From Nitrospirota bacterium (lineage in GTDB: Bacteria; Nitrospirota; Thermodesulfovibrionia; Thermodesulfovibrionales; Dissulfurispiraceae): a stretch of 64,000 nucleotides of DNA. The stretch is from contig JBFLWF010000013.1 in assembly GCA_040758355.1 (NCBI GenBank), forward strand, positions 1 to 64,000, read 5' to 3'. Position numbers and translations under genes: made by a program. Every line of letters starts with the position of its first letter. Position 1 is the stretch's first letter. The notes beneath the pieces were generated by a model. It saw only the letters and a program-made list of their open reading frames with translations, did no database searches and was not told where the DNA came from. Positions 40,354 to 64,000 of this stretch are shown piece by piece.

Positions 40354-42705
40354 TTACTTGTCCAGCACTTCTCTCACCTTTCTTAAAAGGTCATCCGGTG
40401 AAACAGGCTTTGATATGAAGTTTATTCCTTCCTCTAAGACGCCTTTTTCATGGATGATATCTGCCGGATAACCGCTTGTAAAAAGCACTTTAATATCGGG
40501 CATTATCTTTCTTATCTCTTCATATGCCTCCTTGCCGTTCTTCTTGGGCATTATCAGATCGAACAGAAGGAACTGAATCCTGTCTTTATTCTCTATGAAT
40601 TTATTTATTGCATCCACTCCATTAACTGCCTCGATGACCTTGTAACCAAAATTCTCAAGCACTTCTTTTGTGAGTCTTCTGACCTCTGCGTCATCTTCCG
40701 CAGCCAGTATAGTTTCTGTACCTCCTTTTGGTGCAGGAAGAACTATCGATTCAGCTTCTTTAAATTCAGGCTTTATTAAAGGAATATATATCCTGAATGT
40801 TGTTCCTTTGCCGGGTTCGCTGTAGACATTTATGTATCCATTATGCTGTTTGATTATTCCGTATACTATTGCAAGTCCGAGTCCTGTGCCTTTCCCAAAT
40901 TCCTTGGTTGTGAAAAATGGCTCAAATATCCTCTCCCTTGTCTTTTCATCCATTCCGATGCCTGTATCGGTAACCGAGATTCTGGCATATATGCCCGGAG
41001 TCTCGACAGCATGTGTCTTTATGTATTCTTTGTCCAATTCCACAAGCTCTGTTTCGATGGTCAAAAGTCCACCATGAGGCATGGCGTCCCTTGCATTAGT
41101 TGCGAGGTTCATCAATACCTGTTCTATCTGGCCGCTGTCTGCCATTGCTGTCAGGTCTTTATCGGCAAGTATGGTCTTAAGTTCTATATCCTCGCCAATG
41201 AGTCTTAACAAAAGCTTTTCTGTTCTCTTTATAACTTCGTTTAAATTTACAGGTTTTGGGCTGATTATCTGTTTTCTGCTGAACGCAAGGAGCTGCTGGG
41301 TAAGATTTGCTGCCCTTTCTGATGAAGAGAGTATCTGTTCGACATAAGCCACCAGCGGGTCTTCTCTATCCATATTTGTCTTCAAAAGGCTTCCGTATCC
41401 TATTATTGCTGTAAGGATATTGTTGAAGTCATGGGCAATGCCGCCTGCAAGCCGGCCGATTGCCTCCATCTTCTGCGCCTGACCGAGCTGAGCCTTGAGA
41501 ATGGCACTCTCATCTTCTGCCCGTTTTCTGTCGGTTACATCAAGCAGTATCAATATCAGACCACTTACAGTCCCGTCAGCCTCCTTCACAGGCTGCAGGC
41601 TCCAATCCCAATATGTTACTCCACGCTCAGGATGCCCGGCATATTCAAAAGGCTTCTCATAAGCAAGGTACGGCTCGCCTGTTTCCACTACTTTACGGAA
41701 AATGGCCTCATTCTCCTCGCTTGGATATAAATCAAAATGGCTCTTGCCGACAAAGAATTCAGGAGTTCGTTCGTCAGCCTCTGCATAGGCCTGATTTACG
41801 CGTATGAAGTTGAAGTCCTTATCCATGTAAGCGATCATGAGATGCATTGAGGAGAAAACCTTCTCGAATAGTTCATTTGCCTTCGAAAGTATCCTTTTCG
41901 ATTCCATCTCCTTTTCTAATGCATCGAGGAGTTTCTTTCTCGTCTCCCATGCGAATATCCCGAGCATCCCGCCAATGGAAAAAGCAGCCGTTAATGCCGT
42001 GCCGGCCCGGAAGACCTGAACAGGGATATGCACTGCTAAAAAAAAGGAGTCTGCATTAAGCAAGTTTGAAGGGAAAAAGTCTCCTTTTGGAACAACCAAC
42101 CCACTTAAAAAACCATAGGCGAGAAAGGATAAACCAGCCCATAGAAAATACCCTTTTACCTTGAGCGGCTTTAATGTTTCCTTCTCATGCCGGCAATAAG
42201 AGAAAAAACCGAAACCAGTAAAAATAGCGCCAAAAAATCCAAAGAGATATCTTGCCAAGATGCTTCCTGTTTTCCAGAAGTCATGAGATGTAATGCCGAA
42301 GATAAATACGAAAAGCCCTAAAACAGGAGACAACCACCAACCGATATGCCTCTTGACATTTTTTTCCCATGCAGGAGACCCCTCATGGATATTGACTATA
42401 AAAAGCCTCCTGCCGAACTCAAACAGGAAGATAAAGGAAGCAACAAGGCAGAACCACCTGATTAAATCAAGCAATTCGCTCCTGCCTTTGATTATTGCCC
42501 ACATATCCAGCCATTCATTTATTCCGTGTATAAGACCAAACCCCGATAGAAGCCATAAAATATCCGCAATCCTGAATGCGCTTCCCTTTTTAGGCTGAAT
42601 CAGGATACTAATGCCCATCACAAAGAAGGCCATGCCGTAGATAAAAAACACGATTTCCATGTTATTTTGAAACCACTGGTATATTAGATCCATCACCTGT
42701 TGCAT
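40354..42705 (-). CDS. Membrane hybrid histidine kinase (multi-TM-PAS-HisKA-HATPase-REC)
   Basis: Multiple TM segments, AHDFNNIL, GKGTGLGL, REC with DLIMP. Confidence 0.92.
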   Translation of the reverse strand: MQQVMDLIYQWFQNNMEIVFFIYGMAFFVMGISILIQPKKGSAFRIADILWLLSGFGLIHGINEWLDMWAIIKGRSELLDLIRWFCLVASFIFLFEFGRRLFIVNIHEGSPAWEKNVKRHIGWWLSPVLGLFVFIFGITSHDFWKTGSILARYLFGFFGAIFTGFGFFSYCRHEKETLKPLKVKGYFLWAGLSFLAYGFLSGLVVPKGDFFPSNLLNADSFFLAVHIPVQVFRAGTALTAAFSIGGMLGIFAWETRKKLLDALEKEMESKRILSKANELFEKVFSSMHLMIAYMDKDFNFIRVNQAYAEADERTPEFFVGKSHFDLYPSEENEAIFRKVVETGEPYLAYEKPFEYAGHPERGVTYWDWSLQPVKEADGTVSGLILILLDVTDRKRAEDESAILKAQLGQAQKMEAIGRLAGGIAHDFNNILTAIIGYGSLLKTNMDREDPLVAYVEQILSSSERAANLTQQLLAFSRKQIISPKPVNLNEVIKRTEKLLLRLIGEDIELKTILADKDLTAMADSGQIEQVLMNLATNARDAMPHGGLLTIETELVELDKEYIKTHAVETPGIYARISVTDTGIGMDEKTRERIFEPFFTTKEFGKGTGLGLAIVYGIIKQHNGYINVYSEPGKGTTFRIYIPLIKPEFKEAESIVLPAPKGGTETILAAEDDAEVRRLTKEVLENFGYKVIEAVNGVDAINKFIENKDRIQFLLFDLIMPKKNGKEAYEEIRKIMPDIKVLFTSGYPADIIHEKGVLEEGINFISKPVSPDDLLRKVREVLDK

Positions 42706-52572: not shown

Positions 52573-54231
52573 ATGCCCGAAGAAAAAAAGCCAAAAATCC
52601 TCATAGTCGATGACGACCCCACAGACCTGAAATTTCTGACCACTCTTATAACTTATTTCAGATATGATTTCGAGACCGCCACAAATGGCATAGAAGCCAT
52701 AGAAAAGGCAAAAAAAACAAATCCCGATGTCATACTCCTCGATGTCTTAATGCCCGAGATGAACGGAATCGAGGCGTGCAAGATACTGAAGGAAGACCCG
52801 GAAACCCGACATATTCCAATCATGATACTAACTGCATATGGAGATAAAGAAACAAGGATCGAATGCCTGAATGCAGGTGCTAACGACTTCCTTTCAAAGC
52901 CCGTGGACAATACAGAGCTTATGGCAAGAATCAAAAACTTCTTGCAGCTTAAATATCTTGAAGACATTAAGATAAAAAATGAAATTCTGACAGAAACAAT
53001 TAAAGCCATTGAGAATGCCAAGAGAGAGTGGGAACAAACCCTTGACTGCATAGGTGACATAGTAATGTTAATCGATGCAAAGGATAATATTTTAAGATGC
53101 AACAAAATATTGACCACATTAACCGGTAAGTCTTATGACAACTTGCTGAACCGCAAATGGCAGGACATCCTTCGAGAAGGAGGATTCAGTTACAAGATCA
53201 GCAATTCTGGGGCGGTAGAGTTTTCGCATCCGAGTGGTAGATATTTTAACTACAACATCTACCATATCAGACCGCAGAACATCCCCGCCGGATATACATC
53301 AGTAATAACACTCCAGGATATAACGGATTTAAGACACCTGTCAGAAGAAATCAAAAAAAGCAAAGAAATCATGGAAGAGAAAAACAAAGAACTTGAAACC
53401 GCATATGCCGAACTCAAAGCAGCCCAATCACGGATAATACAGTCCGAAAAGATGGCATCTATCGGCCAGCTCGCAGCAGGCATTGCACACGAGATAAACA
53501 ACCCAGTTGGATTTATAATGAGCAACCTCGGTTCGCTTTTAAAGTATTCCGATAAATTATCGCAATTTATAAAAATCCAATCAGAGGCAATCGAAAAAGT
53601 CTCAACACAAAAAGAGGACATTAACAAAATACTCGATACAATAAAAGAAACCAGGAAATCACTCAAGGTCGATTACATAACAGAGGACATAAACAATCTC
53701 ATCAAGGAGTCCATCGATGGTACTGAAAGGGTCAAAAAGATAGTTCAGGATTTAAAGAGCTTTTCGAGGGTTGATGAGGCTGAATGGAAAATGGCTGACA
53801 TCAATGCAGGAATAGAGAGCACAATAAACATCGTATGGAACGAGCTTAAATATAAGGCAACAGTGAAGAAGGAATACGGAGACATCCCTTTAACAAAATG
53901 CAATCCCGGACAGTTGAATCAGGTATTCATGAACATACTTATCAATGCAGCACATGCAATACAAAAGCAGGGGGAGATTACGGTAAAGACATGGCATGGC
54001 AATGGTAATATCTTCATTTCAATCTCCGATACCGGAATTGGAATATCTAAGGAAAACATAAGCAGGATATTCGAGCCTTTTTTCACAACAAAGGAGGTTG
54101 GAAAAGGAACAGGGCTCGGTTTGAGCATAGCTTATGACATTGCGAGAAGACATAAAGGTGATATAATAGTTGATAGTGAAGCGGGAAAAGGGACAACATT
54201 TACTGTGAAAATCCCTGTTGTAAAAAAATGA
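52573..54231 (+). CDS. Soluble histidine kinase, REC-PAS-HisKA-HATPase
   Basis: ILIVDDD...LLDVLMP, AHEINNP, GKGTGLGL; no TM segment. Confidence 0.92.
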   Translation: MPEEKKPKILIVDDDPTDLKFLTTLITYFRYDFETATNGIEAIEKAKKTNPDVILLDVLMPEMNGIEACKILKEDPETRHIPIMILTAYGDKETRIECLNAGANDFLSKPVDNTELMARIKNFLQLKYLEDIKIKNEILTETIKAIENAKREWEQTLDCIGDIVMLIDAKDNILRCNKILTTLTGKSYDNLLNRKWQDILREGGFSYKISNSGAVEFSHPSGRYFNYNIYHIRPQNIPAGYTSVITLQDITDLRHLSEEIKKSKEIMEEKNKELETAYAELKAAQSRIIQSEKMASIGQLAAGIAHEINNPVGFIMSNLGSLLKYSDKLSQFIKIQSEAIEKVSTQKEDINKILDTIKETRKSLKVDYITEDINNLIKESIDGTERVKKIVQDLKSFSRVDEAEWKMADINAGIESTINIVWNELKYKATVKKEYGDIPLTKCNPGQLNQVFMNILINAAHAIQKQGEITVKTWHGNGNIFISISDTGIGISKENISRIFEPFFTTKEVGKGTGLGLSIAYDIARRHKGDIIVDSEAGKGTTFTVKIPVVKK

Positions 54232-54253
54232 ATTGAAATAAGGAAACAGATCG

Positions 54254-56149
54254 ATGGGCAGAGAACTCAAGAAAGACCATAATACAGACAGATATTCATA
54301 CGAGTTCTACAAAACTGTTCTCAATGGCATAAATGACTCCATCTGTATTATTGATACCGATGATTTAAGCATAGTCTCGGTCAATGACGCATTTTTAAAG
54401 GAGTACGGCTTAACGGAAAAAGATGTAATCGGAAAGAAATGTCATGAAATAACCCATAACAGGCAAACCGTATGTCTTCCGCCATATGATCCATGCCCTC
54501 TCAATGAGACTCTGAGAACAGGAGCGCATGCAGCATTCGAACACATCCATTATACAAAAAGAGGAGAGAGAATATATGTCGAGGTATCGGCACATCCGTT
54601 GAAGGATAACAAAGGGAGGGTTATTCAGGCGATACATGTATCAAGAAACATAACGCATCTCAAGGAAACAGAAAACTCCCTTCGCAAAAAACAGGATGAA
54701 CTCCTTAAAAAAACCGAGGAATTGACCGGTGTTTTAAAAAATGTGGAAACAATAAAAAAAGAGTGGGAAACCACCATGGATTGCATAGAGGATATGGTTA
54801 TGATTGTCGACAAAGACGATAAAATCCAGAGATGCAATATGGCGGTAAGGAAATTTACCGCGAAGACCTATGATGAAATACTCGGCAAAAACTGGAAAAC
54901 ATTGCTTATGGAGCATGGCATAAAATTCGGCGATGAGAATATTTATCATTATGTAAAAAGGGATATAGAGTTTGTTGATGAGACAAAAGGAGGCTGGTTT
55001 TCGATTAACTCCTATCCGTATAAGATATTGTCGGGAGAAAAGGAAGGCTCCGTTATAACCGTGCATGATACAACCGAGATAAAAACCCTTATGGAGTCCC
55101 TCAAGATAACGAACGAAGTCCTCGAAAAAGATCGAAAGGAGTTGCAGCTTGCGCTCGATGAGATATCCTTTCTTATGCAGGAAGTCAGAAAGAGAAAAGA
55201 TATCAGTGTAAGATTCAATACATCGGATTTTTCCGGATCGGATGTCATATTCGGAATCGCCGGGCACTTTAATGAAATGATGGCTATTCTCGAATCCCAG
55301 CACAAAGAACTCGAAAATGCATATTCCGAATTAAAGTCTGCCCAATCACAGCTATTGCAGTCCGAAAAGATGGCATCTATCGGCCAGCTTGCAGCAGGTG
55401 TTGCGCATGAGATCAACAATCCCGTTGGATTCATAATGAGCAATCTTGGTTCTTTGCAAAGATATATTGGAAGGCTCTCTGAATTTATAAAGGCGCAGAC
55501 AGAGGCAATTGGGCAGTTAGGGGTTACGGGTTCGGAGTTTGAAGAGATACAGAAAAAGGTGAATGAATTTAAAAAATCACTGAAGATCGATTACATAATG
55601 GATGATTTAAACAACCTCATCAAGGAGTCTCTCGATGGTGCAGAGAGGGTCAAAAAGATAGTTCAGGACTTAAAGAGCTTTTCAAGGGTTGATGAGGCTG
55701 AATGGAAGATGGCTGACATCAATTCATGCATAGAAAGCACGATAAATATAGTATGGAATGAGCTCAAGTACAAGGCAACAATAAAAAAGGAATATGGAAA
55801 CATACCTTTAACAAAATGCAATCCCGGACAATTGAATCAGGTATTTATGAACATGCTGGTAAATGCAGCATACGCAATAGAGAAACAGGGAGAGATTACA
55901 ATAAAAACATGGCTTGAAAATGGGTATATTTATGTTTCTATTTCGGACACGGGCTGTGGAATCCCCGCAGATAAAATCAATAGGATATTCGAGCCATTTT
56001 TCACAACAAAGGAGGTAGGAAAAGGAACAGGGCTCGGTTTAAGCATAGCATATGATATTATGAAGAAACATAATGGAGAAATAAATGTAGAGAGCGAAGC
56101 GGGAAAAGGCACGACATTTACTGTGAAAATCCCTGTCGTGGAGAGATAG
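54254..56149 (+). CDS. Soluble histidine kinase, PAS-PAS-HisKA-HATPase
   Basis: GKKCHE..CPL PAS, AHEINNP, GKGTGLGL. Confidence 0.92.
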   Translation: MGRELKKDHNTDRYSYEFYKTVLNGINDSICIIDTDDLSIVSVNDAFLKEYGLTEKDVIGKKCHEITHNRQTVCLPPYDPCPLNETLRTGAHAAFEHIHYTKRGERIYVEVSAHPLKDNKGRVIQAIHVSRNITHLKETENSLRKKQDELLKKTEELTGVLKNVETIKKEWETTMDCIEDMVMIVDKDDKIQRCNMAVRKFTAKTYDEILGKNWKTLLMEHGIKFGDENIYHYVKRDIEFVDETKGGWFSINSYPYKILSGEKEGSVITVHDTTEIKTLMESLKITNEVLEKDRKELQLALDEISFLMQEVRKRKDISVRFNTSDFSGSDVIFGIAGHFNEMMAILESQHKELENAYSELKSAQSQLLQSEKMASIGQLAAGVAHEINNPVGFIMSNLGSLQRYIGRLSEFIKAQTEAIGQLGVTGSEFEEIQKKVNEFKKSLKIDYIMDDLNNLIKESLDGAERVKKIVQDLKSFSRVDEAEWKMADINSCIESTINIVWNELKYKATIKKEYGNIPLTKCNPGQLNQVFMNMLVNAAYAIEKQGEITIKTWLENGYIYVSISDTGCGIPADKINRIFEPFFTTKEVGKGTGLGLSIAYDIMKKHNGEINVESEAGKGTTFTVKIPVVER

Positions 56150-56160
56150 CTCTCAGCCTT

Positions 56161-56247
56161 TGTCATTCCTGCGGAAGCAGGAATCCAGAGGCATAGATTC
56201 CCGTTCCCCGATTAAGAACTTCGGGGACAGGTTTCACGGGAATGACA
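56161..56247. repeat. REP-like palindromic doublet with nested hairpin
   Basis: TGTCATTCC...GGAATCCAG / GATTCCCG...CGGGAATGACA with inner TCCCCGA-ttaagaact-TCGGGGA. Confidence 0.8.
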
Positions 56248-56263
56248 GGAATTAGGAGTAATT

Positions 56264-57067
56264 ATGAATGGAGAGATAAAAATACTGTGCGTGGACGACG
56301 AGCCGAATGTCCTCAATGCATTGAAAAGGTTATTCCTCGACGAACCGTATACTATTTTAACTGCTGCTTCAGGACAGGAAGGTCTCGAAATTATCGAAAA
56401 GGAAGATGTCCAGATAATCATATCCGATTATCGCATGCCCGGTATGAACGGGGTGGATTTTCTAAAAGAGGCACGGAAAAAATGGCCTGATACCGTCAGG
56501 ATCGTACTTTCCGGTTATGCCGACACCGCAGCCATTGTCTCGGCCATAAATGAAGGACAGATATATAAATTCGTTCCCAAACCGTGGAATGATGACGAAT
56601 TAAAGGTTACCATTTCAAATGCCGTTGAGCGGTATTATCTTTTTTTAAAAAATATGGAACTCACAGAAGAGCTCCGGAGGAAAAACAACGAACTCACAAA
56701 GCTGAATAAAGAGTTGAAATCCCATCTTGCATTCAGGGCAAGGGCATTGGCTATCCAGCAGAACATCCTCGATGCAATGCCTGTGGGAATTGTAGGGATT
56801 GACTTTAACAATTTAGTGGTTTTATGCAATTCAACATGGATAGATATAACAAATACCAGATGGCAATTATTAGGACAAAGCATAGAATCCGCCGGCTGGC
56901 CTGAATGTATAAAAGACTTTGTGGGGGAGGTCAAAGACAGGCACAAGGCCGCGAAAAAAATAGAGATAAACGGTATTTACGGCAGGCTTTCGGGTGCTAT
57001 AATGGATTATGGCGACGACCAGAAGGGCATAATCCTTGTCTTCAGCCAGGAGAATGATGTTTTATGA
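56264..57067 (+). CDS. Response regulator, REC plus coiled coil plus PAS-like domain
   Basis: CVDDEPNVL, SDYRMP, KPWND. Confidence 0.88.
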   Translation: MNGEIKILCVDDEPNVLNALKRLFLDEPYTILTAASGQEGLEIIEKEDVQIIISDYRMPGMNGVDFLKEARKKWPDTVRIVLSGYADTAAIVSAINEGQIYKFVPKPWNDDELKVTISNAVERYYLFLKNMELTEELRRKNNELTKLNKELKSHLAFRARALAIQQNILDAMPVGIVGIDFNNLVVLCNSTWIDITNTRWQLLGQSIESAGWPECIKDFVGEVKDRHKAAKKIEINGIYGRLSGAIMDYGDDQKGIILVFSQENDVL

Positions 57068-58020
57068 ATGATTCGGTTTTGTTTGTGGATGACGAAGCCA
57101 ATGTGCTGAACTCCTTGAAGAGGCTTTTCATGGACAGCGACATCAGAATCATGACTGCCATGAATGCATTTGAGGCCATGGACATATTAAATAACAACAG
57201 CATCTCTGTTATTGTCTCTGACAACCGCATGCCCGGAATGACAGGAATCGAACTCCTGCAAAATGCAAAAGATATATCTCCAGACAGCGTAAGAATCCTG
57301 ATAACCGCCTATGCGGATATGAAATCTGCAATAGATGCCATCAACAAAGGAGAGGTGTACAAGTTCATAACAAAACCATGGAATGACCACGACTTCAAGG
57401 AGATTGTTTTTAATGCGCTCCACAGATACGATTTCATCAAATCTTGCAGAAGGGCTGACGAGGCCACCCTGCTCTCTTTAGCCCAGACTATCGAGCTGAA
57501 AGACCCTTATACGAGAGGTCACTGCGACAGGGTGGCAAATTATGCAGTCAGGCTAGCAGAGGCTTTAGGCTTATCAGGAGAGAAGCAAAAAAACATCAGA
57601 TACGGAAGCTGGCTTCATGATTGTGGCAAAATAGGGGTTCCTGAGGCCATACTCAACAACAACGGTCCTCTATCTCCAGAGCAAATGGAGATAGTAAAGA
57701 ATCACAGCAGATGGGGAGCAGATGTTGCGCGGCTGGCTCAACTGCCAGAGGCTGTCATAAACATCATCCTCTACCACCACGAGAGATATGACGGCAAAGG
57801 TTATCCTCTGGGATTGAAGGGCAGCAACATTCCAATCGAGGCAAGAATAGTTACTGTTGCGGATACCTATGATGCCCTGACATCGGATAGGCCATACAGG
57901 GACAAAGTGGCGCACGGAACTGCAGTAGAATTTTTAACAAAATTTAAGGGCCAATTCTTTGACCCTGAGGTCGTGGATGCCTTTTTAAAGCTCATGGAAG
58001 AAAAACGTTTTGAGGCTTAA
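57064..58020 (+). CDS. REC-HD-GYP cyclic dinucleotide phosphodiesterase
   Basis: GHCDRVA, LHDCGK, HHERYDGKGYP. Confidence 0.92.
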   Translation: MNDSVLFVDDEANVLNSLKRLFMDSDIRIMTAMNAFEAMDILNNNSISVIVSDNRMPGMTGIELLQNAKDISPDSVRILITAYADMKSAIDAINKGEVYKFITKPWNDHDFKEIVFNALHRYDFIKSCRRADEATLLSLAQTIELKDPYTRGHCDRVANYAVRLAEALGLSGEKQKNIRYGSWLHDCGKIGVPEAILNNNGPLSPEQMEIVKNHSRWGADVARLAQLPEAVINIILYHHERYDGKGYPLGLKGSNIPIEARIVTVADTYDALTSDRPYRDKVAHGTAVEFLTKFKGQFFDPEVVDAFLKLMEEKRFEA

Positions 58021-58041
58021 TAGAATATTAAGGGGGTAGAA

Positions 58042-58575
58042 ATGGACGAAAAGGTCAAGATACTATTTGTGGACGACGAGGAGAATGTGCTCACTGCGCT
58101 GAAAAGGGTCTTTCTCGATACAGATTATGTAATACTTGCAGCGCCATCAGGGAAGGAAGCACTGAAGATTCTGGAGACAAACGATGTTCAGGTCATTGTC
58201 TCGGATTACCGAATGCCTGAAATGAACGGAGTCGAATTTTTAAAAATTGTAAGGGAGCAATGGAACGATATAATAAGAATAATTCTTTCGGGTTATGCAG
58301 ACCTGAATGCATTGATTACAGCCGTAAACGAGGGCCATATCTACAAATTCATAGCCAAGCCATGGAATGACGACGAATTGAGAATTACCATATCCAATGC
58401 CCTCGACAGATACTTTCTCCATAAGAAAAACCTCGAACTGACATCCGAACTCGAGGAAAAAAACAGGCAGCTCGTGATGTTAAACGCCAAATTAAAGGAA
58501 TTCATGGAGCAGCAGGAGGCTCAACTCGATTTTTTACGCAAAGAACTGGAAAAGGCCCAGAAAAACAATATTTAA
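58042..58575 (+). CDS. Response regulator, REC plus coiled coil
   Basis: FVDDEENVL, SDYRMP, KPWND. Confidence 0.9.
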   Translation: MDEKVKILFVDDEENVLTALKRVFLDTDYVILAAPSGKEALKILETNDVQVIVSDYRMPEMNGVEFLKIVREQWNDIIRIILSGYADLNALITAVNEGHIYKFIAKPWNDDELRITISNALDRYFLHKKNLELTSELEEKNRQLVMLNAKLKEFMEQQEAQLDFLRKELEKAQKNNI

Positions 58576-58588
58576 AGGCAATATTTAA

Positions 58589-59911
58589 ATGGCAACGGTT
58601 CAAAAAAATGAAATATTCAATGTCCTCTTTGTAGACGATGAGGAAAATATCCTCCGCTCAATGAAGCGGCTGTTTATGGGTGTGAAAGGCATAAACATCC
58701 TCACAGCCATGTCAGGCAAGGAGGGCCTCGGAATTTTGAAAAACAACGAGGTTGCCGTCATAGTCTCCGACCAGAAGATGCCTGAAATGAGCGGCCCGGA
58801 ATTCCTCGAAAAGGCAAAAAAGATGCAGCCCGAATCAGTGAGGATTGTACTGACAGGCTATGCCGATATCGATGCTGCAATGGATGCAATAAATAAGGGA
58901 GGCGCATCGAAGTATATAACAAAGCCATGGGACGACAACGACTTGATGCTGACCGTACTGAATTCGGTAGAAACATACAGCCTGAAAAAGGAAAATAAGC
59001 GCCTTACAGAACTCACAAGGAAACAGAACGAAGAATTGAAAAAATGGAGCTCCGAGCTCGAATTTTACGTCCAGCAGCAGACAGTAGACCTGACGAAACA
59101 GAACAAAGAACTGAACAAGCTCAACGAAAAGTTGAGAAAAAATTTCAGGGATTTCATCTCTGCATTTTATAATCTTATTGAGCTGCGCAATAAGATCATC
59201 TATATCCACTCGAATAATGTCGCAACCCTTGTCTCTGAAATGATTCATAAGATGAGGCTGTCTCATGCGGAATCGGAAAACGCGGTCGTGGCTGCACAAC
59301 TGCATGACATCGGCAAGATTGGTGTTTCCGATGCCATGCTGATAAAAAACTTTAACGAATTCTCCGCAGAAGAAAAAGCGGAATATATAAAGCACCCTGT
59401 AATAGGGCAGACCGTCATTGATTCCGTTGAGGAACTTCGGGATGTCGGCATCCTCATCAGACACCACCACGAATGGTATAACGGAGACGGATTCCCTGAC
59501 AGGCTAAGGTATGAAAAGATACCTCTTGGCTCACGGGTCATTGCCATTGCCGATAAATTCGACAGATTGACAAATACCGGCAGGGACTCTCTGAATACTG
59601 AAAGCGCATTGCAAAAAATAAAGACCCTTCTCGGCACCCAATTTGATCCGGACCTGTACCCATTCCTGTGCGAGGTGGCGCATGAAAGGATTACAACCGC
59701 AATTCCTGAAACAGAGGATGTAGAGGTCGAAATGAAACCAAATGACCTTGTTCCGGGCATTGTTTTATCAAGGGATGTCAGGAGCGGCACAGGACTGCTG
59801 CTCTTAAAAAAAGGGACGACCCTTAATGATAAAAACATAGATACCTTAAAACGGGGATACCATCTCGATCCATCAAAGAGCGGAATATTTGTATGGGGGA
59901 GAAGAAAATAA
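58589..59911 (+). CDS. REC-HD-GYP-like protein (GFP variant) with extra C-terminal domain
   Basis: LHDIGK, HHEWYNGDGFP, C-terminal LVPGIVLSRDV...LLLKKG. Confidence 0.88.
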   Translation: MATVQKNEIFNVLFVDDEENILRSMKRLFMGVKGINILTAMSGKEGLGILKNNEVAVIVSDQKMPEMSGPEFLEKAKKMQPESVRIVLTGYADIDAAMDAINKGGASKYITKPWDDNDLMLTVLNSVETYSLKKENKRLTELTRKQNEELKKWSSELEFYVQQQTVDLTKQNKELNKLNEKLRKNFRDFISAFYNLIELRNKIIYIHSNNVATLVSEMIHKMRLSHAESENAVVAAQLHDIGKIGVSDAMLIKNFNEFSAEEKAEYIKHPVIGQTVIDSVEELRDVGILIRHHHEWYNGDGFPDRLRYEKIPLGSRVIAIADKFDRLTNTGRDSLNTESALQKIKTLLGTQFDPDLYPFLCEVAHERITTAIPETEDVEVEMKPNDLVPGIVLSRDVRSGTGLLLLKKGTTLNDKNIDTLKRGYHLDPSKSGIFVWGRRK

Positions 59912-59912
59912 C

Positions 59913-60578
59913 ATGATTGAATACGATGAAATAGAGCAAAGGATGGTTTTAAAGCTCGTATATTACGGTCCTGCCATGTCAGGAAAAAGCACCAATCTCT
60001 TAAGGCTTCACGACATCCTCGATATCGAGGGCAGAGGCGATTTGATGACCCTCGACACAAAGGATGACCGAACCATATTCTTCGACCTGCTTCCGTTTTT
60101 CTTTACCGCACCGAGCGGATTGAAGATAAAGGTCAAGGTTTACACAGTACCGGGGCAGGTCCGCCATGATGCAACCAGAAAAGCAGTATTGACGAGGGCT
60201 GACGGCATAGCATTTATTGCGGATTCGCAGATCTCGGAATCTGCGAATAATGTCGAAAGCTTCGAAAACCTCGAAAAGAACCTCGCCCTTGTGGGAATCA
60301 ATGTAGAGAAGATACCCCTCGTTATACAATTTAATAAAAGGGATTTGAAGGATATTGTTTCGGAAGATGAAATTAAAAGAACATGGGAATCAACGGGCAT
60401 ACCTGTTTTTGTGGCATCCGCATTATACGGGCATGGTGTGCTCGAAACATTCAGAAGGCTTGTGGAGCTAACATATGATTACATCGATATCCGCTACGGT
60501 CTGAAGGAAAAACATATGCTGACAAAAGAGATGTTTGTGGAAAATCTTACAAAGACAGTAGATAGTGAAATAGCATGA
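59913..60578 (+). CDS. MglA-family small Ras-like GTPase
   Basis: KLVYYGPAMSGKSTNL, DRTIFFD, TVPGQ, NKRD, ASA. Confidence 0.9.
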   Translation: MIEYDEIEQRMVLKLVYYGPAMSGKSTNLLRLHDILDIEGRGDLMTLDTKDDRTIFFDLLPFFFTAPSGLKIKVKVYTVPGQVRHDATRKAVLTRADGIAFIADSQISESANNVESFENLEKNLALVGINVEKIPLVIQFNKRDLKDIVSEDEIKRTWESTGIPVFVASALYGHGVLETFRRLVELTYDYIDIRYGLKEKHMLTKEMFVENLTKTVDSEIA

Positions 60579-61921
60579 CAGGGCAAACAGACAGGATAGA
60601 TTTTTCCCTCGGGGCAGAGATGAGGCTTAAAGACATTCTAAGCACCACAGATGTGCTCCCTCTGTTAAAGGCAATAGTGGAGGCAGGCACAGACATGGCA
60701 GCCGTATCCGATGCAAAAGGGGAAATATTATGGGCAGAAGGCAGCGTGCCGGATAACAGGGAACTCCCTCAGTCTGTTATTAAAAGTCTATCTGACGGGA
60801 AATATGAAGATACAGGCTGGAGATTGTCGCCAATTTATCATGAGGGCGAGTTAGTCGGGTTCATCTTCATATCCGCACTGGGCCGAATAAATGAAGAAAT
60901 CCTTTCAGGCATTACAGGTATTGCCTTTGCAGGACTGAACGCAATTATAAAAAATATAGTAAAAAGGGTATTCACCACAGAACTGCACACTACTGTTGTG
61001 CAAAGGTCTTATGAAGACCTCCTCGAAATCAACAAAAACTTAGCGGCCTCGGAAAAGAAATACAAGGAACTGTCGGAAACACTTGAGCAAAGGGTACAGG
61101 AGAGGACAGAGGAATTGAAAAGGGCATACACAAGACTGCTCCAGCAGGAGAAGATGGCATCCATAGGACAGCTTGCAGCAGGCGTTGCACATGAGATCAA
61201 TAACCCGATAGGCTTCATATACAGCAATCTCAACACCTTTGGGAAATATGTTAAAAATCTTACAGAGATGCTCGAATTCTATAGAAGGCAAGAGGCTACG
61301 GATATTAGGCAAGAGACAGAGGAATTGTACAAGAAACTGAAAATCGATTTCATAACATCCGACATACAGGATTTAATTAAACAGAGCACCGATGGCGCAG
61401 AGCGTATAAAAAACATTGTAGCCAACCTGAAAGGCTTTTCGCACATAGATGAGGCTGCCGACAGGGAAATGAGCATTAATGCAGAGATGGACAATACCAT
61501 CAGTGTGCTTTCATACGAGATAAAGGCAAGGTCGGCAGAGATCGTAAAACATTATGGTAAGATTGCAGGTTTCTTCGGCAATCCCGGGCTTATATGCCAG
61601 GCATTTCTTAATATTCTGTTAAACGCCCTGCACTCAAGAGATGATAATATCATAGTAACGATCAAGACAGAACAGCATGGGGACAATGCAGTCATTTCCA
61701 TTGCTGACAATGGAATAGGGATACCACCGGAAATACAGAGCCGCATATTTGAGCCATTCTTTACTACAAAGGATGTGGGCAGGGGCACAGGCATGGGTCT
61801 GGCGGTGGCATATGATATTATTTCCCGATATGGAGGAAATATTGAAGTTAAGAGCGAGTTAGGCAAAGGATCGACCTTTGTAATAACATTACCTTTGAAA
61901 AAAGTTGGAGTGATGGAGTAA
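60575..61921 (+). CDS. Soluble histidine kinase with PocR/GAF-like N-terminal domain
   Basis: AHEINNP, GRGTGMGL; start overlaps GTPase stop. Confidence 0.9.
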   Translation: MTGQTDRIDFSLGAEMRLKDILSTTDVLPLLKAIVEAGTDMAAVSDAKGEILWAEGSVPDNRELPQSVIKSLSDGKYEDTGWRLSPIYHEGELVGFIFISALGRINEEILSGITGIAFAGLNAIIKNIVKRVFTTELHTTVVQRSYEDLLEINKNLAASEKKYKELSETLEQRVQERTEELKRAYTRLLQQEKMASIGQLAAGVAHEINNPIGFIYSNLNTFGKYVKNLTEMLEFYRRQEATDIRQETEELYKKLKIDFITSDIQDLIKQSTDGAERIKNIVANLKGFSHIDEAADREMSINAEMDNTISVLSYEIKARSAEIVKHYGKIAGFFGNPGLICQAFLNILLNALHSRDDNIIVTIKTEQHGDNAVISIADNGIGIPPEIQSRIFEPFFTTKDVGRGTGMGLAVAYDIISRYGGNIEVKSELGKGSTFVITLPLKKVGVME

Positions 61922-64000
61922 TGGCAAAATACGCTGAGCTTTTCAAGACGACAAAAAAAGACGATACGGGCGATGAGATAATAAGCTCTCCTGAGTCTGT
62001 TCAGGCAAGGTTCACCCTTCTATTTGTGGATGACGAGGAAAATGTGCTCCATGCGCTCAGGCGTATATTCCTCGATGAGAACTACGAAATCCTTACTGCC
62101 GCATCAGGGGAGGATGCGCTGAAGATTATGGAAAGCACTGTTGTTCACCTCGTGATTTCCGACCACAGAATGCCCGGAATGCTCGGCTCGGAACTCCTCA
62201 GGGAAATCAAGAACAGATGGCCCGAGACAATAAGGATCATGCTCACCGGCCACGCTGACATTCAGGCGATTATGGGCGCAGTGAATGAGGGCGCTGTCTA
62301 TAAATTCATAACAAAACCCTGGAACGACGAAGACCTGCGTCTGACCGTAAGCCTTGCCCTTCAACAGTATGTCCTGATACAGGAGAACAGGAAACTCAAG
62401 GAGCTGGCAAAGGAGCAGCAGGTAAAGATAAAAACCTACTCCAATCTCTTTGACGAATACAGGGGAATTTTAGGCAGCATACTCGTAAAATCAGGCGTCA
62501 TCACAAACGAGCAGCTTAGCAGGGCATTGAAAGAAAAAGACAAGGACGAATTCATAGGAGATGCCATAGTCCGCCTTGGATTCACGACAGAATCAAAGAT
62601 AGTTCAGGCGATTCAGAAGCACCAGAATTTAGACTATATAGACCTCAAAGAGATTCATATCAACCCAAATATTGCAAAGTTTCTCCCGCGCGACCTGTGT
62701 GAAAAGAACAGATTAATCCCCACAAAATTGGACGGCAGGAACCTAACAATAGCCATGGCAGACCCATCGGACATTATAAAAACAGACAATATCTCCATGC
62801 TCACCGGATTCAAGGTGATCCCTGTTGTCGCAAAATCTTCGGACATTGTCAAATATATAAAAAGGATTTACGGAGATGTCGAAGGAGCCGCGCCTGTCGA
62901 GGATATCTCCGAGACCCTCGATCTCGAGCCCATAGAAGAGATAGATATTGTCATAGAAGAAGATGAAACAGATATAAATATCCAGGAACTGATAAGCACA
63001 TCCGGCATCCCTCCGATTGTAAGGATCGTGAATGCCATCATCATGGAGGCGCTCCGCTATCAGGCGAGCGATATACATATCGAGCCGAAAACGAAATATA
63101 CCATTATAAGGTATAGGATCGACGGCATGCTTCACACAAAGATAAAAATACCTTTGAACCTGCATCCTGCAGTCATATCGAGGGTTAAGATACTCGCAAA
63201 GATGGACATCTCGGAGCGCAGGAAGCCTCAGGATGGAAGGATCACCATAAAGACCGGCACGAGGCTCGTGGATATGAGGGTGTCAAGCATGCCGACCATA
63301 AACGGCGAGAAAATCGTTATGAGAATATTGGACAAAGGAGCTGCTGTAAAGAAAATTGCTGAGCTCGGGATGAGCGAGGCCGACCTTCAGCGGCTGAATG
63401 TGGTAATAAAAAAGCCTCAGGGCATACTGGTATCCACTGGCCCTACCGGAAGCGGAAAAACTACGACTCTTTATTCCATCATTTACGAGATGATTCAATC
63501 CACCAAGAATTTCGAGACGATAGAAGACCCTGTAGAATATTTTTTAGAAGACGCAAATCAGGTCTATGTAAGAGAGCGCATAGGGTTGTCGTTTGCGTCC
63601 ATATTGAGGTCAACCTTGAGGCAGGATCCTGATGTGATACTGGTAGGCGAAATCCGTGATTATGAGACAGCAGATGTAGCATTTAAGGCAGCGCTTACTG
63701 GACACATGGTTTTAACAAGCCTGCACACAAACAATACGGTTGCGTCTATCACACGACTTATCGATATTGGCGTTAAACCGTATCTCATTGCATCTGCCAT
63801 CGAAGGCATAATAGCACAGAGGCTCGTAAGAAAAGTCTGTCAGTACTGTAAGACGACAACAGTCCCGGATAAGGAAATAATGAAGCTGCTCAAAATTCCA
63901 GAGGACACATTTAAAGAAGTGGTAGTCGGCAGGGGATGCAGCAAATGCAATAATACAGGCTATCTTGGCAGGACAGGCATTTTCGAGTTGTTTGTAATAA
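61921..64000 (+). CDS. REC-MshEN-like-PilB/GspE ATPase fusion (runs off window end; absent from ORF track)
   Basis: Manual translation: FVDDEENVL..SDHRMP..KPWND receiver; LGSILVKSGVITNEQLSRAL; ASDIHIEP; GPTGSGKTTT; LRQDPDVILVGEIRD; AQRLVRKVCQYC..CSKC. Confidence 0.92.
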   Translation, partial: MAKYAELFKTTKKDDTGDEIISSPESVQARFTLLFVDDEENVLHALRRIFLDENYEILTAASGEDALKIMESTVVHLVISDHRMPGMLGSELLREIKNRWPETIRIMLTGHADIQAIMGAVNEGAVYKFITKPWNDEDLRLTVSLALQQYVLIQENRKLKELAKEQQVKIKTYSNLFDEYRGILGSILVKSGVITNEQLSRALKEKDKDEFIGDAIVRLGFTTESKIVQAIQKHQNLDYIDLKEIHINPNIAKFLPRDLCEKNRLIPTKLDGRNLTIAMADPSDIIKTDNISMLTGFKVIPVVAKSSDIVKYIKRIYGDVEGAAPVEDISETLDLEPIEEIDIVIEEDETDINIQELISTSGIPPIVRIVNAIIMEALRYQASDIHIEPKTKYTIIRYRIDGMLHTKIKIPLNLHPAVISRVKILAKMDISERRKPQDGRITIKTGTRLVDMRVSSMPTINGEKIVMRILDKGAAVKKIAELGMSEADLQRLNVVIKKPQGILVSTGPTGSGKTTTLYSIIYEMIQSTKNFETIEDPVEYFLEDANQVYVRERIGLSFASILRSTLRQDPDVILVGEIRDYETADVAFKAALTGHMVLTSLHTNNTVASITRLIDIGVKPYLIASAIEGIIAQRLVRKVCQYCKTTTVPDKEIMKLLKIPEDTFKEVVVGRGCSKCNNTGYLGRTGIFELFVI

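Follow-up and report, generated by a model that had tools for sequence, protein, structure and literature searches.

Bacterial small GTPases sit downstream of two-component signalling, as in the Frz/RomR pathway and the conservons. Two orphan GTPases are among the closest known relatives of the locus described here. SofG is an orphan GTPase of 239 amino acids (aa), and Gmet_3475 of Geobacter metallireducens was classed as an orphan Group-1 MglA (PMC4316618). The neighbours of Gmet_3475 were annotated as REC-PulE (Gmet_3473), kinase (Gmet_3474), REC-HD (Gmet_3476) and two further kinases (Gmet_3477 and Gmet_3478), and no G. sulfurreducens orthologue was tabulated for any of these five (PMC2700814, 12 of its 19 supplement files). 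All of Gmet_3472–3477 rise in a strain high in cyclic di-GMP (c-di-GMP), with log2 fold changes of 0.68–2.04, one of them flagged significant, and their changes are mixed in a low-c-di-GMP strain (PMC12285248). The related cluster analysed here belongs to a Nitrospirota bacterium (Dissulfurispiraceae, assembly GCA_040758355.1) and begins with nine co-oriented open reading frames (ORFs) on the plus strand at 52573–64000 of contig JBFLWF010000013.1; the window is the whole 64,000-nucleotide stretch at positions 1 to 64,000. The cluster is real, conserved and, in the searchable papers, undescribed as a system, and it couples a GTPase to two-component signalling with a specific predicted interface. 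In the preferred reading, to which a probability of about 0.5 is given, the signal would run from the GTPase through the adjacent kinase to the receivers, with the upstream kinases joining in and the motor ATPase among the targets. The core features are as follows:

59913..60578, plus strand: g7, orphan Group-1 MglA-family GTPase, 221 aa, with Arg53, Gln82 and a C-terminal extension (alignment)
60575..61921, plus strand: g8, soluble kinase, 448 aa, with a PocR-related, roadblock-like input domain, a coiled coil, a DHp domain (His206) and an ATPase domain
60602..61018, plus strand: residues 10–148 of g8, input domain and docking helix, with the predicted GTPase-binding surface at residues 11–15, 88–92 and 126–148
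61921..64000 and on to contig position 64335, plus strand: g9, REC–coiled coil–MshEN–PilB/GspE-type ATPase–double zinc ribbon protein, 804 aa

For comparison, 80 loci were fetched through the GTPase as the best 80 of 205 matches, and among these the closest relatives were Nitrospirota metagenome-assembled genomes (MAGs). Clade A comprises 40 loci, namely 20 from the GTPase search (65–92% identical) and 20 fetched separately, 18 of them from the family to which a Geobacter MAG belongs and two from the class of the window; clade B consists of the other 60 loci, mostly from Myxococcota, with 44–54% identity to g7. The kinase directly follows the GTPase in 39 of the 40 clade-A loci, and the REC-ATPase is likewise present in 39; the sole incomplete core belongs to locus L024, the contig of which stops just after the GTPase, and in locus L018 the ATPase lies upstream instead. 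The cluster is not a product of chance, since 39 of 40 loci, from several phyla, have its core genes side by side, and the neighbourhood check that the first-pass annotation had proposed found its gene order conserved in close relatives. The distribution is patchy: the clade-A GTPase was found in 10 of 301 genomes of the phylum of the window and in 21 of 61 genomes of the Geobacter family. In these 61 genomes the GTPase and the REC-ATPase occurred together in 20, neither occurred in 39, and one occurred alone in two, in both of which the locus is apparently cut by contig ends; since kindred genomes are not independent, these counts are given without a statistical test.

In clade B, the kinase input domain comes right after the GTPase in 55 of 60 loci (24 of 29 among the loci outside profile building), and the five misses comprise two at contig ends and three real ones. 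No PilB-type ATPase was matched in any of the 60 clade-B loci, 35 of which have full flanks. As clade B keeps the GTPase and the kinase input domain without the ATPase, the constant partner of the GTPase is the kinase, not the motor ATPase. A direct link from MglA to the motor, as in Myxococcus, on which the first-pass annotation had drawn, is therefore not favoured, given that the GTPase travels with the kinase input domain and is predicted to bind it. In the FastTree phylogeny, clades A and B were sisters of each other, apart from the MglB-coupled MglA proteins (support for A + B 0.999). Of 81 genomes searched in the order to which an Anaeromyxobacter MAG belongs, 69 gave a clade-B-type match (E at most 2.1e-64), and ten loci from large Myxococcales genomes, which fall in the sister clade, each encode an orphan GTPase of 232–248 aa followed by a PocR kinase. 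Judging by length, orphan state and taxon, rather than by comparison with the named SofG sequence, clade B likely contains SofG, which we take to be MXAN_6703; a literature search by locus tag returned nothing for MXAN_6702/6703 and one paper for Gmet_3476.

The GTPase itself matched MglA structures with E 2.5e-44 and has the features of Group-1 MglA proteins (150–240 aa, Arg finger, catalytic Gln), with R53 invariant and Q82 nearly invariant among 38 clade-A GTPases; no NCBIfam family was assigned to it at 1e-8. The clade-A GTPase alignment, which was used for the complex, holds 38 of the 40 rows, the start-codon pattern having missed two loci; an earlier alignment, in which two minus-strand references were one codon off, provided the search profile and 12 rows for clade B.

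The complex was modelled from two g8 fragments, the GTPase, GTP and Mg. The prediction reached a score of 0.70, the best of three controls 0.01, and the runs agreed in at least 87% of contacts, with a partner pLDDT (predicted local distance difference test) of at least 87; of 157 solved complexes 116 came up to the score mark, as did 2 of 215 mismatched pairs. On the kinase side the predicted interface comprises residues 11–15, 88–92 and 126–148, which coincide with invariant columns of the alignment (G13, E90, E92, K130, H138 and S145, unchanged in 40 of 40 clade-A kinases); these columns were relied on instead of a strict motif pattern, which hit merely 27 of the 40. On the GTPase side it comprises switch I, β2–β3 and switch II, and the signalling helices of the two kinase copies are both part of the contact. 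Among the interface residues of the GTPase, K75 and H85 occur in every clade-A (38 of 38) and clade-B (22 of 22) sequence and in none of ten other MglAs, and T88 is invariant in the same 60 sequences and occurs in one of the ten. In GTP-bound MglA the β2 strand flips over towards the side that binds MglB (PMC11016934), and the β2 residues 55–59 of the GTPase sit in the predicted interface; GTP-selective binding is therefore suggested by the model and by analogy. The model supports physical binding of the GTPase to the kinase input domain, which is considered quite probable.

The input domain was assigned less directly. PF10114 (PocR) gave no g8 match at E 0.1, and six of six tested clade-B kinases passed it; the N-terminus of g8 is homologous to the clade-B PocR domain (hhalign 98%, E 1.7e-13), and the input domains of both clades have a common helix with a conserved His. 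The kinase H-boxes of the two clades belong to different kinase families. A word search with the first 190 residues of the kinase returned 26 close relatives only, and the roadblock Pfam profile did not match g8. The predicted N-terminus forms a small α/β domain (mean pLDDT 88), the last helix of which runs unbroken into the His helix. Its best structural match in VIA-align was MglB of M. xanthus (Z 11.1, root-mean-square deviation 2.9, 106 aligned residues, 9% identity), followed by a second MglB (Z 10.9; MglB identities 9–12%), other roadblock proteins (10.1–10.4) and a GAF domain (9.2). From sequence and model together, we read the domain as a shortened PocR-family domain with a profilin-like fold, descent from MglB being unproven.

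The remaining genes of the cluster encode two further kinases and, together with g9, the receivers:

52573..54231, plus strand: g1, soluble hybrid kinase REC-PAS-HisKA-HATPase, 552 aa, a variable upstream sensor (Pfam; H-box common to g2 and g8)
54254..56149, plus strand: g2, soluble kinase PAS-PAS-HisKA-HATPase, 631 aa, a variable upstream sensor (Pfam, H-box)
56264..57067, plus strand: g3, REC–coiled coil–PAS-like protein without enzymatic output, 267 aa (Pfam; PAS weak, E 0.002)
57064..58020, plus strand: g4, REC-HD-GYP protein, 318 aa, predicted c-di-GMP phosphodiesterase (Pfam and motifs)
58042..58575, plus strand: g5, REC–coiled coil protein, 177 aa, like a shortened g3 (Pfam, loci of relatives)
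58589..59911, plus strand: g6, REC–coiled coil–HD protein of the NosR family, 440 aa, same family as Gmet_3476 (NF053512)
64352–64909 of the contig, outside the window, plus strand: g10, 185 aa, a REC protein whose C-terminal tail is conserved, the final cluster gene ahead of rho

The six receivers that are not part of kinases have a mean identity of 45–54% to each other and of at most 33% to the other 81 of the genome, and the acceptor Asp is kept in all cluster receivers. The kinases g1, g2 and g8 have a common H-box sequence that occurs in no other of the 28 H-boxes listed; all three matched the NCBIfam family T2SS_HK below its cut-off. These specificity residues suggest that the three kinases and six receivers likely form an insulated many-to-many network. 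The first-pass annotation had expected the signal to converge on one motor; with three kinases serving six near-paralogous receivers it more likely fans out, and the strict sense of its label 'phosphorelay' fails, the cluster having no Hpt domain (the three Hpt matches of the genome are all on other contigs). Its idea of a post-translational network without DNA-binding output is supported: none of the ten cluster proteins gave a Pfam match to a DNA-binding domain, and the absence of transmembrane segments was likewise confirmed, the mean hydropathy of 19-residue windows never exceeding 1.53 in any of the ten. The word 'cytoplasmic' holds for this genome by hydropathy and not for all relatives, 15 of the 40 clade-A loci having a same-family kinase with at least two hydrophobic segments (crude hydropathy; L027 not scored). 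In clade A the sensors of the upstream kinases vary, their H-box being of the same type as that of the core kinase. The C-terminal part of g3 was seen in 17 of the 40 loci, the g10 tail, that is, the last REC protein, in 31, and an HD protein of g4 or g6 type in 36 (g4 type in 23, g6 type in 27).

The ATPase g9 keeps the Walker A and Walker B motifs, the Asp and His boxes and the tetracysteine Zn motif when compared with the PilB, GspE and MshE-like proteins of the same genome; its best family match is PilB, and REC-ATPases are 65–93% identical across phyla. MshE needs an Arg (RLG motif) and a downstream Gln for c-di-GMP binding (PMC4624772). The Arg position is occupied by I, M, V or L in 31 of 35 REC-ATPases and the Gln position by K, R, M or L in 30 of 35, g9 itself having Ile and Lys, respectively. 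The simplest reading of these sequences is that the receiver replaces the nucleotide switch. The genome is 99% complete and encodes one MglA (g7) and, besides six extension-type ATPases, four of PilT type; its three platform genes all lie on other contigs and are already served by PilB, GspE and the MshE-like ATPase. Two further extension-type ATPases without an adjacent platform were observed in the same genome (L114 5954–7741 and L115 6973–8703), one TfpB-like below the cut-off and the other between genes without an NCBIfam match at 1e-25. A type II secretion cluster (gspE, F, G onward) was observed at L113 2211–12543; in front of it lie genes for a FapF-like protein and for a serine protease, neither of which reaches its family cut-off.

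The two HD proteins, both taken for HD-GYP-type by the first-pass annotation, differ. In g4 the HD, HHE, GYP and RPYR motifs are intact, as in RpfG-type proteins, and the designation stands; g4 is predicted to be a c-di-GMP phosphodiesterase. The designation does not extend to g6, which lacks the canonical RxxK/R substrate motif and reads GFP instead of GYP. It passes the NosR family (NF053512, 470.6 bits against a cut-off of 400), to the REC part of which the other receivers also match, and it is 48% identical over 426 aa to Gmet_3476 (WP_004513926.1), g4 reaching 33%. A G. metallireducens candidate, named Gmet_3476 in a later paper (10.1101/2021.11.05.467447), was a putative phosphodiesterase of cyclic GMP-AMP (cGAMP) in an E. 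coli biosensor screen (10.1101/600031). Selectivity for cGAMP of the PmxA type is recognised by Rxx(Q/N) at the R314–K317 position; the RxxN of g6 aligns to the RxxQ of Gmet_3476, five residues before the canonical site seen in g4. A cGAMP role in this organism is disfavoured, as 13 of 14 GGDEF matches have the canonical Asp and the remaining one has no GGDEF motif (15 were found, one fragment being excluded); no Hypr-type cGAMP synthase was present among the GGDEF matches examined. In two relatives, the REC-HD genes adjoin genes for proteins that we take to be of HDOD type (L021 354–1220; L029 4275–5138).

In the mechanism proposed, GTP-loaded g7 would bind the input domain of the adjacent g8, its switch I, β2–β3 and switch II docking at the junction of the input domain with the coiled coil leading straight into the His helix, and this binding would change the kinase activity of g8 through the coiled coil. 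The kinase g8 and the two upstream kinases would phosphorylate the six related receivers. Receiver phosphorylation would substitute for c-di-GMP binding as the switch of the ATPase, and g9 would work on a platform, of a pilus or a secretion system, whose genes lie elsewhere. In parallel, g4 and g6 would adjust cyclic-dinucleotide levels, and g3, g5 and g10 may serve as phosphate sinks or adaptors.

Several observations weigh against this mechanism. As regards the complex, the in-house alignments and the GTP and Mg ligands lie outside the calibration of the score, and the MglB-like fold of the input domain together with the solved MglA–MglB complexes may partly explain it. The GTPase surface involved is the one where MglB exerts its GTPase-activating protein (GAP) function, so that the reverse direction fits equally, and the prediction covered the GTPase–kinase pair, a second contact between GTPase and ATPase being possible. 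A Foldseek search with the input domain gave nothing significant and ranked GAF/PAS domains first. In the clade-B loci L040, L056 and L057, the PocR kinase is not downstream of the GTPase despite ample flank. As regards the ATPase, g9, scored over its full 804 aa, falls below the cut-offs of both TIGR02538 (PilB; 562.1 against 675.65) and TIGR02533 (GspE; 537.1 against 630.25), and the REC-ATPases form a long-branched clade of their own, assigned to no machine or platform, in a quick version of the tree in which long branches meet. An Arg stands two residues before the canonical MshEN position in 28 of 35 sequences, making a variant c-di-GMP site possible. A platform gene lies within 10 kb in one of the 40 clade-A loci, on the opposite strand and with its own GspE-like gene. 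Finally, 4 of 39 REC-ATPase copies are broken into two ORFs, by sequencing error or decay (L016 10198–13451; L019 12042–14421; L028 2384–4800; L108 11571–14001).

The alternative that survives best reverses the direction, and we consider it unlikely: the roadblock-like domain of g8 would be a built-in GAP replacing MglB, and the GTPase would be the output, acting on the ATPase or its localisation. The two MglB proteins that head the structural matches of the domain (Z 11.1 and 10.9) speak for it, as does the lack of a roadblock/MglB gene, there being no Robl_LC7 (PF03259) and no MglB tblastn match in the 99%-complete genome and no MglB tblastn match in any of the 40 clade-A loci. Moreover, g7 keeps Arg53 and Gln82, so that an indirect GAP would suffice, and conservons place the kinase upstream of the GTPase (PMC13343842). 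By sequence, however, the domain is PocR-related and not Robl_LC7, and the roadblock structures tie within one Z unit, with GAF at 9.2. A domain at the input position of an intact kinase, the core of which differs between clades, fits an input function; with a receiver of its own, the ATPase can do without contact to the GTPase, and in clade B no ATPase lies nearby. The GAP function may also hold together with signalling from the GTPase to the kinase.

Rather improbable is that the REC-ATPase is no motor at all, being a repurposed hexameric ATPase or a scaffold acting via its zinc-ribbon tail, with the rest of the circuit standing. Such a role would suit the absence of a nearby platform gene in 39 of 40 loci, the separate long-branched clade, the scores below the equivalog cut-offs and the three platforms already served by other ATPases. 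The catalytic boxes, Zn motif and MshEN fold kept at 65–93% identity and the best match to PilB argue for a motor, and the same genome has two other extension-type ATPases without a platform.

It is more improbable still that the GTPase would be a spatial scaffold, which only places the kinase, for example at a pole, for local phosphorylation of the ATPase, with kinase activity unchanged. In favour of this, SofG sits on BacP patches, polar PilB and PilT depend on it (PMC4085708), and g7 is sister to the clade likely holding it; against it, the predicted contact on the signalling helix of both kinase copies suits allosteric control, and no canonical MglA–MglB polarity module was found in the genome, in which bactofilins were not searched for. 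Mere co-regulation of a block inherited together, with no contact between GTPase and kinase, is very improbable: neighbours need not bind, and three clade-B loci do without the kinase, but the controlled complex prediction, the matching conserved surfaces and the retention of the pair across different kinase cores argue otherwise.

As to the surroundings, all four overlapping or nearly abutting junctions given in the first-pass annotation were confirmed, namely ATGA overlaps at 57064–57067 and 60575–60578, a 1-nt gap at 59911/59913 and TAATG at 61919–61923. Its suggestion to look past position 64000 for mglB, pilC/gspF or pilins brought none to light; the REC gene g10 is followed by rho, named from sequence without a profile scan and preceded by a sigma-70-like site, and the contig ends at 74,687. 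A promoter scan of the window gave 29 sites against 25.1 in shuffles and was uninformative; terminator-like sites numbered 20 against 10.1 in shuffles, and none was interpreted. A palindromic element at 56162–56246, between g2 and g3, resembles a small dispersed repeat and is, we presume, akin to REP-type elements; a degenerate pattern for its left arm had 10 matches genome-wide. Outside the cluster, at 40354–42705 on the minus strand, a further hybrid kinase is encoded, which has another H-box and the layout N-terminal hydrophobic region–PAS–HisKA–HATPase–REC.

A full-text literature search, mostly without subscription papers, found no publication on the cluster as a system or on the GTPase–PocR kinase pair, and PocR was mentioned by none of the literature matches listed. 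The earlier statement that no characterised system with this architecture was known thus holds, in the literature searched, for the cluster as a unit and not for its parts, Gmet_3476, 48% identical to g6, having been assayed. One g6-family protein carries the name of G. sulfurreducens despite the 2009 table without an orthologue there (PMC2700814), and the presence of the cluster may vary between strains of that species.

If the proposed wiring is true, control of a histidine kinase by a GTPase via the input domain would be new, as would the control of a pilus or secretion motor through a PilB-type ATPase switched by its own receiver. A wider generalisation is tentative, at somewhat less than even odds: SofG-type GTPases would form a dedicated G-protein-to-kinase cascade, in which the GTP-bound GTPase binds a PocR/roadblock-like domain and switches the kinase, as in Ras–Raf, the module having been joined to kinase cores of different kinds. 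It would gate, in Geobacter and Nitrospirota, a pilus-type motor that phosphorylation controls; in myxobacteria, the kinase beside sofG would be the missing effector or GAP of SofG. The clade-B PocR kinase is accordingly a candidate for the cognate regulator of SofG, which the 2014 survey lists as unidentified (PMC4316618). The predicted interface gives residues to mutate, and the scheme is testable in laboratory organisms, namely G. metallireducens, which has the full cluster, and M. xanthus, which has the pair if SofG belongs to clade B.

Compared with known systems, g9 resembles the PilB, GspE and MshE ATPases in its MshEN-fold domain, T2SSE domain, complete catalytic boxes and Zn motif, and differs in the N-terminal receiver, the C-terminal double zinc ribbon, the lack of the canonical c-di-GMP Arg and Gln and of a platform gene nearby, and the scores below the family cut-offs. 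The NosP/NosK/NosR and Hno networks likewise have several kinases and common paralogous receivers with HD-GYP outputs, and g6 is of the NosR family; however, no NosP or H-NOX domain appeared in the Pfam results of the cluster, and to our knowledge these networks include no GTPase or ATPase. MglA–MglB of Myxococcus and Thermus has a GTPase of the same family with the same catalytic residues, and the partner predicted here uses the same switch/β2 face and has a similar fold; no mglB was found in the cluster or the genome, hence none within four genes of mglA as in polarity modules, the partner is a kinase input domain of PocR ancestry, and K75, H85 and T88 of g7 differ from MglB-coupled MglA. 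Like g7, SofG is an orphan MglA-family GTPase with an Arg finger, longer than MglA and tied to type IV pilus ATPases, but it is described as acting with BacP on PilB/PilT localisation, and no kinase partner is mentioned in the available parts of these papers (PMC4316618, PMC4085708); clade B, moreover, has no REC-ATPase nearby, unlike the cluster.

Conservons (CvnA–D, Mfp, also AGPS) resemble the cluster as operons with a small GTPase, a histidine kinase and a roadblock-fold component. They have GTPases of Group 2, a kinase in the membrane, CvnB and CvnC as separate proteins and no response regulator, the GTPase being the proposed output (PMC4316618, PMC13343842), whereas the kinase of the cluster is soluble and itself carries the roadblock-like domain, and six receivers are present, which sets the cluster apart from them. 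The nearest precedent in concept, by analogy, is Group 1 Rup, in which a GTPase adjoins a kinase or cyclase, and the N-terminal domain of the latter was suggested to contribute a GAP residue; the catalytic Gln is missing from Rup GTPases, which have coiled-coil and OmpA-type neighbours (PMC4316618), whereas g7 is MglA-type, has Gln82 and has neither neighbour, and so does not class as Rup. For the G. metallireducens locus, the phosphodiesterase Gmet_3476 alone was assayed, and the cluster is not discussed in the accessible part of that report (10.1101/600031). Gmet_3472–3478 nevertheless comprises the same gene set as the Nitrospirota cluster, namely REC, REC-PulE, kinase, orphan MglA, REC-HD and two sensor kinases, with the difference that its upstream kinases have HAMP domains.

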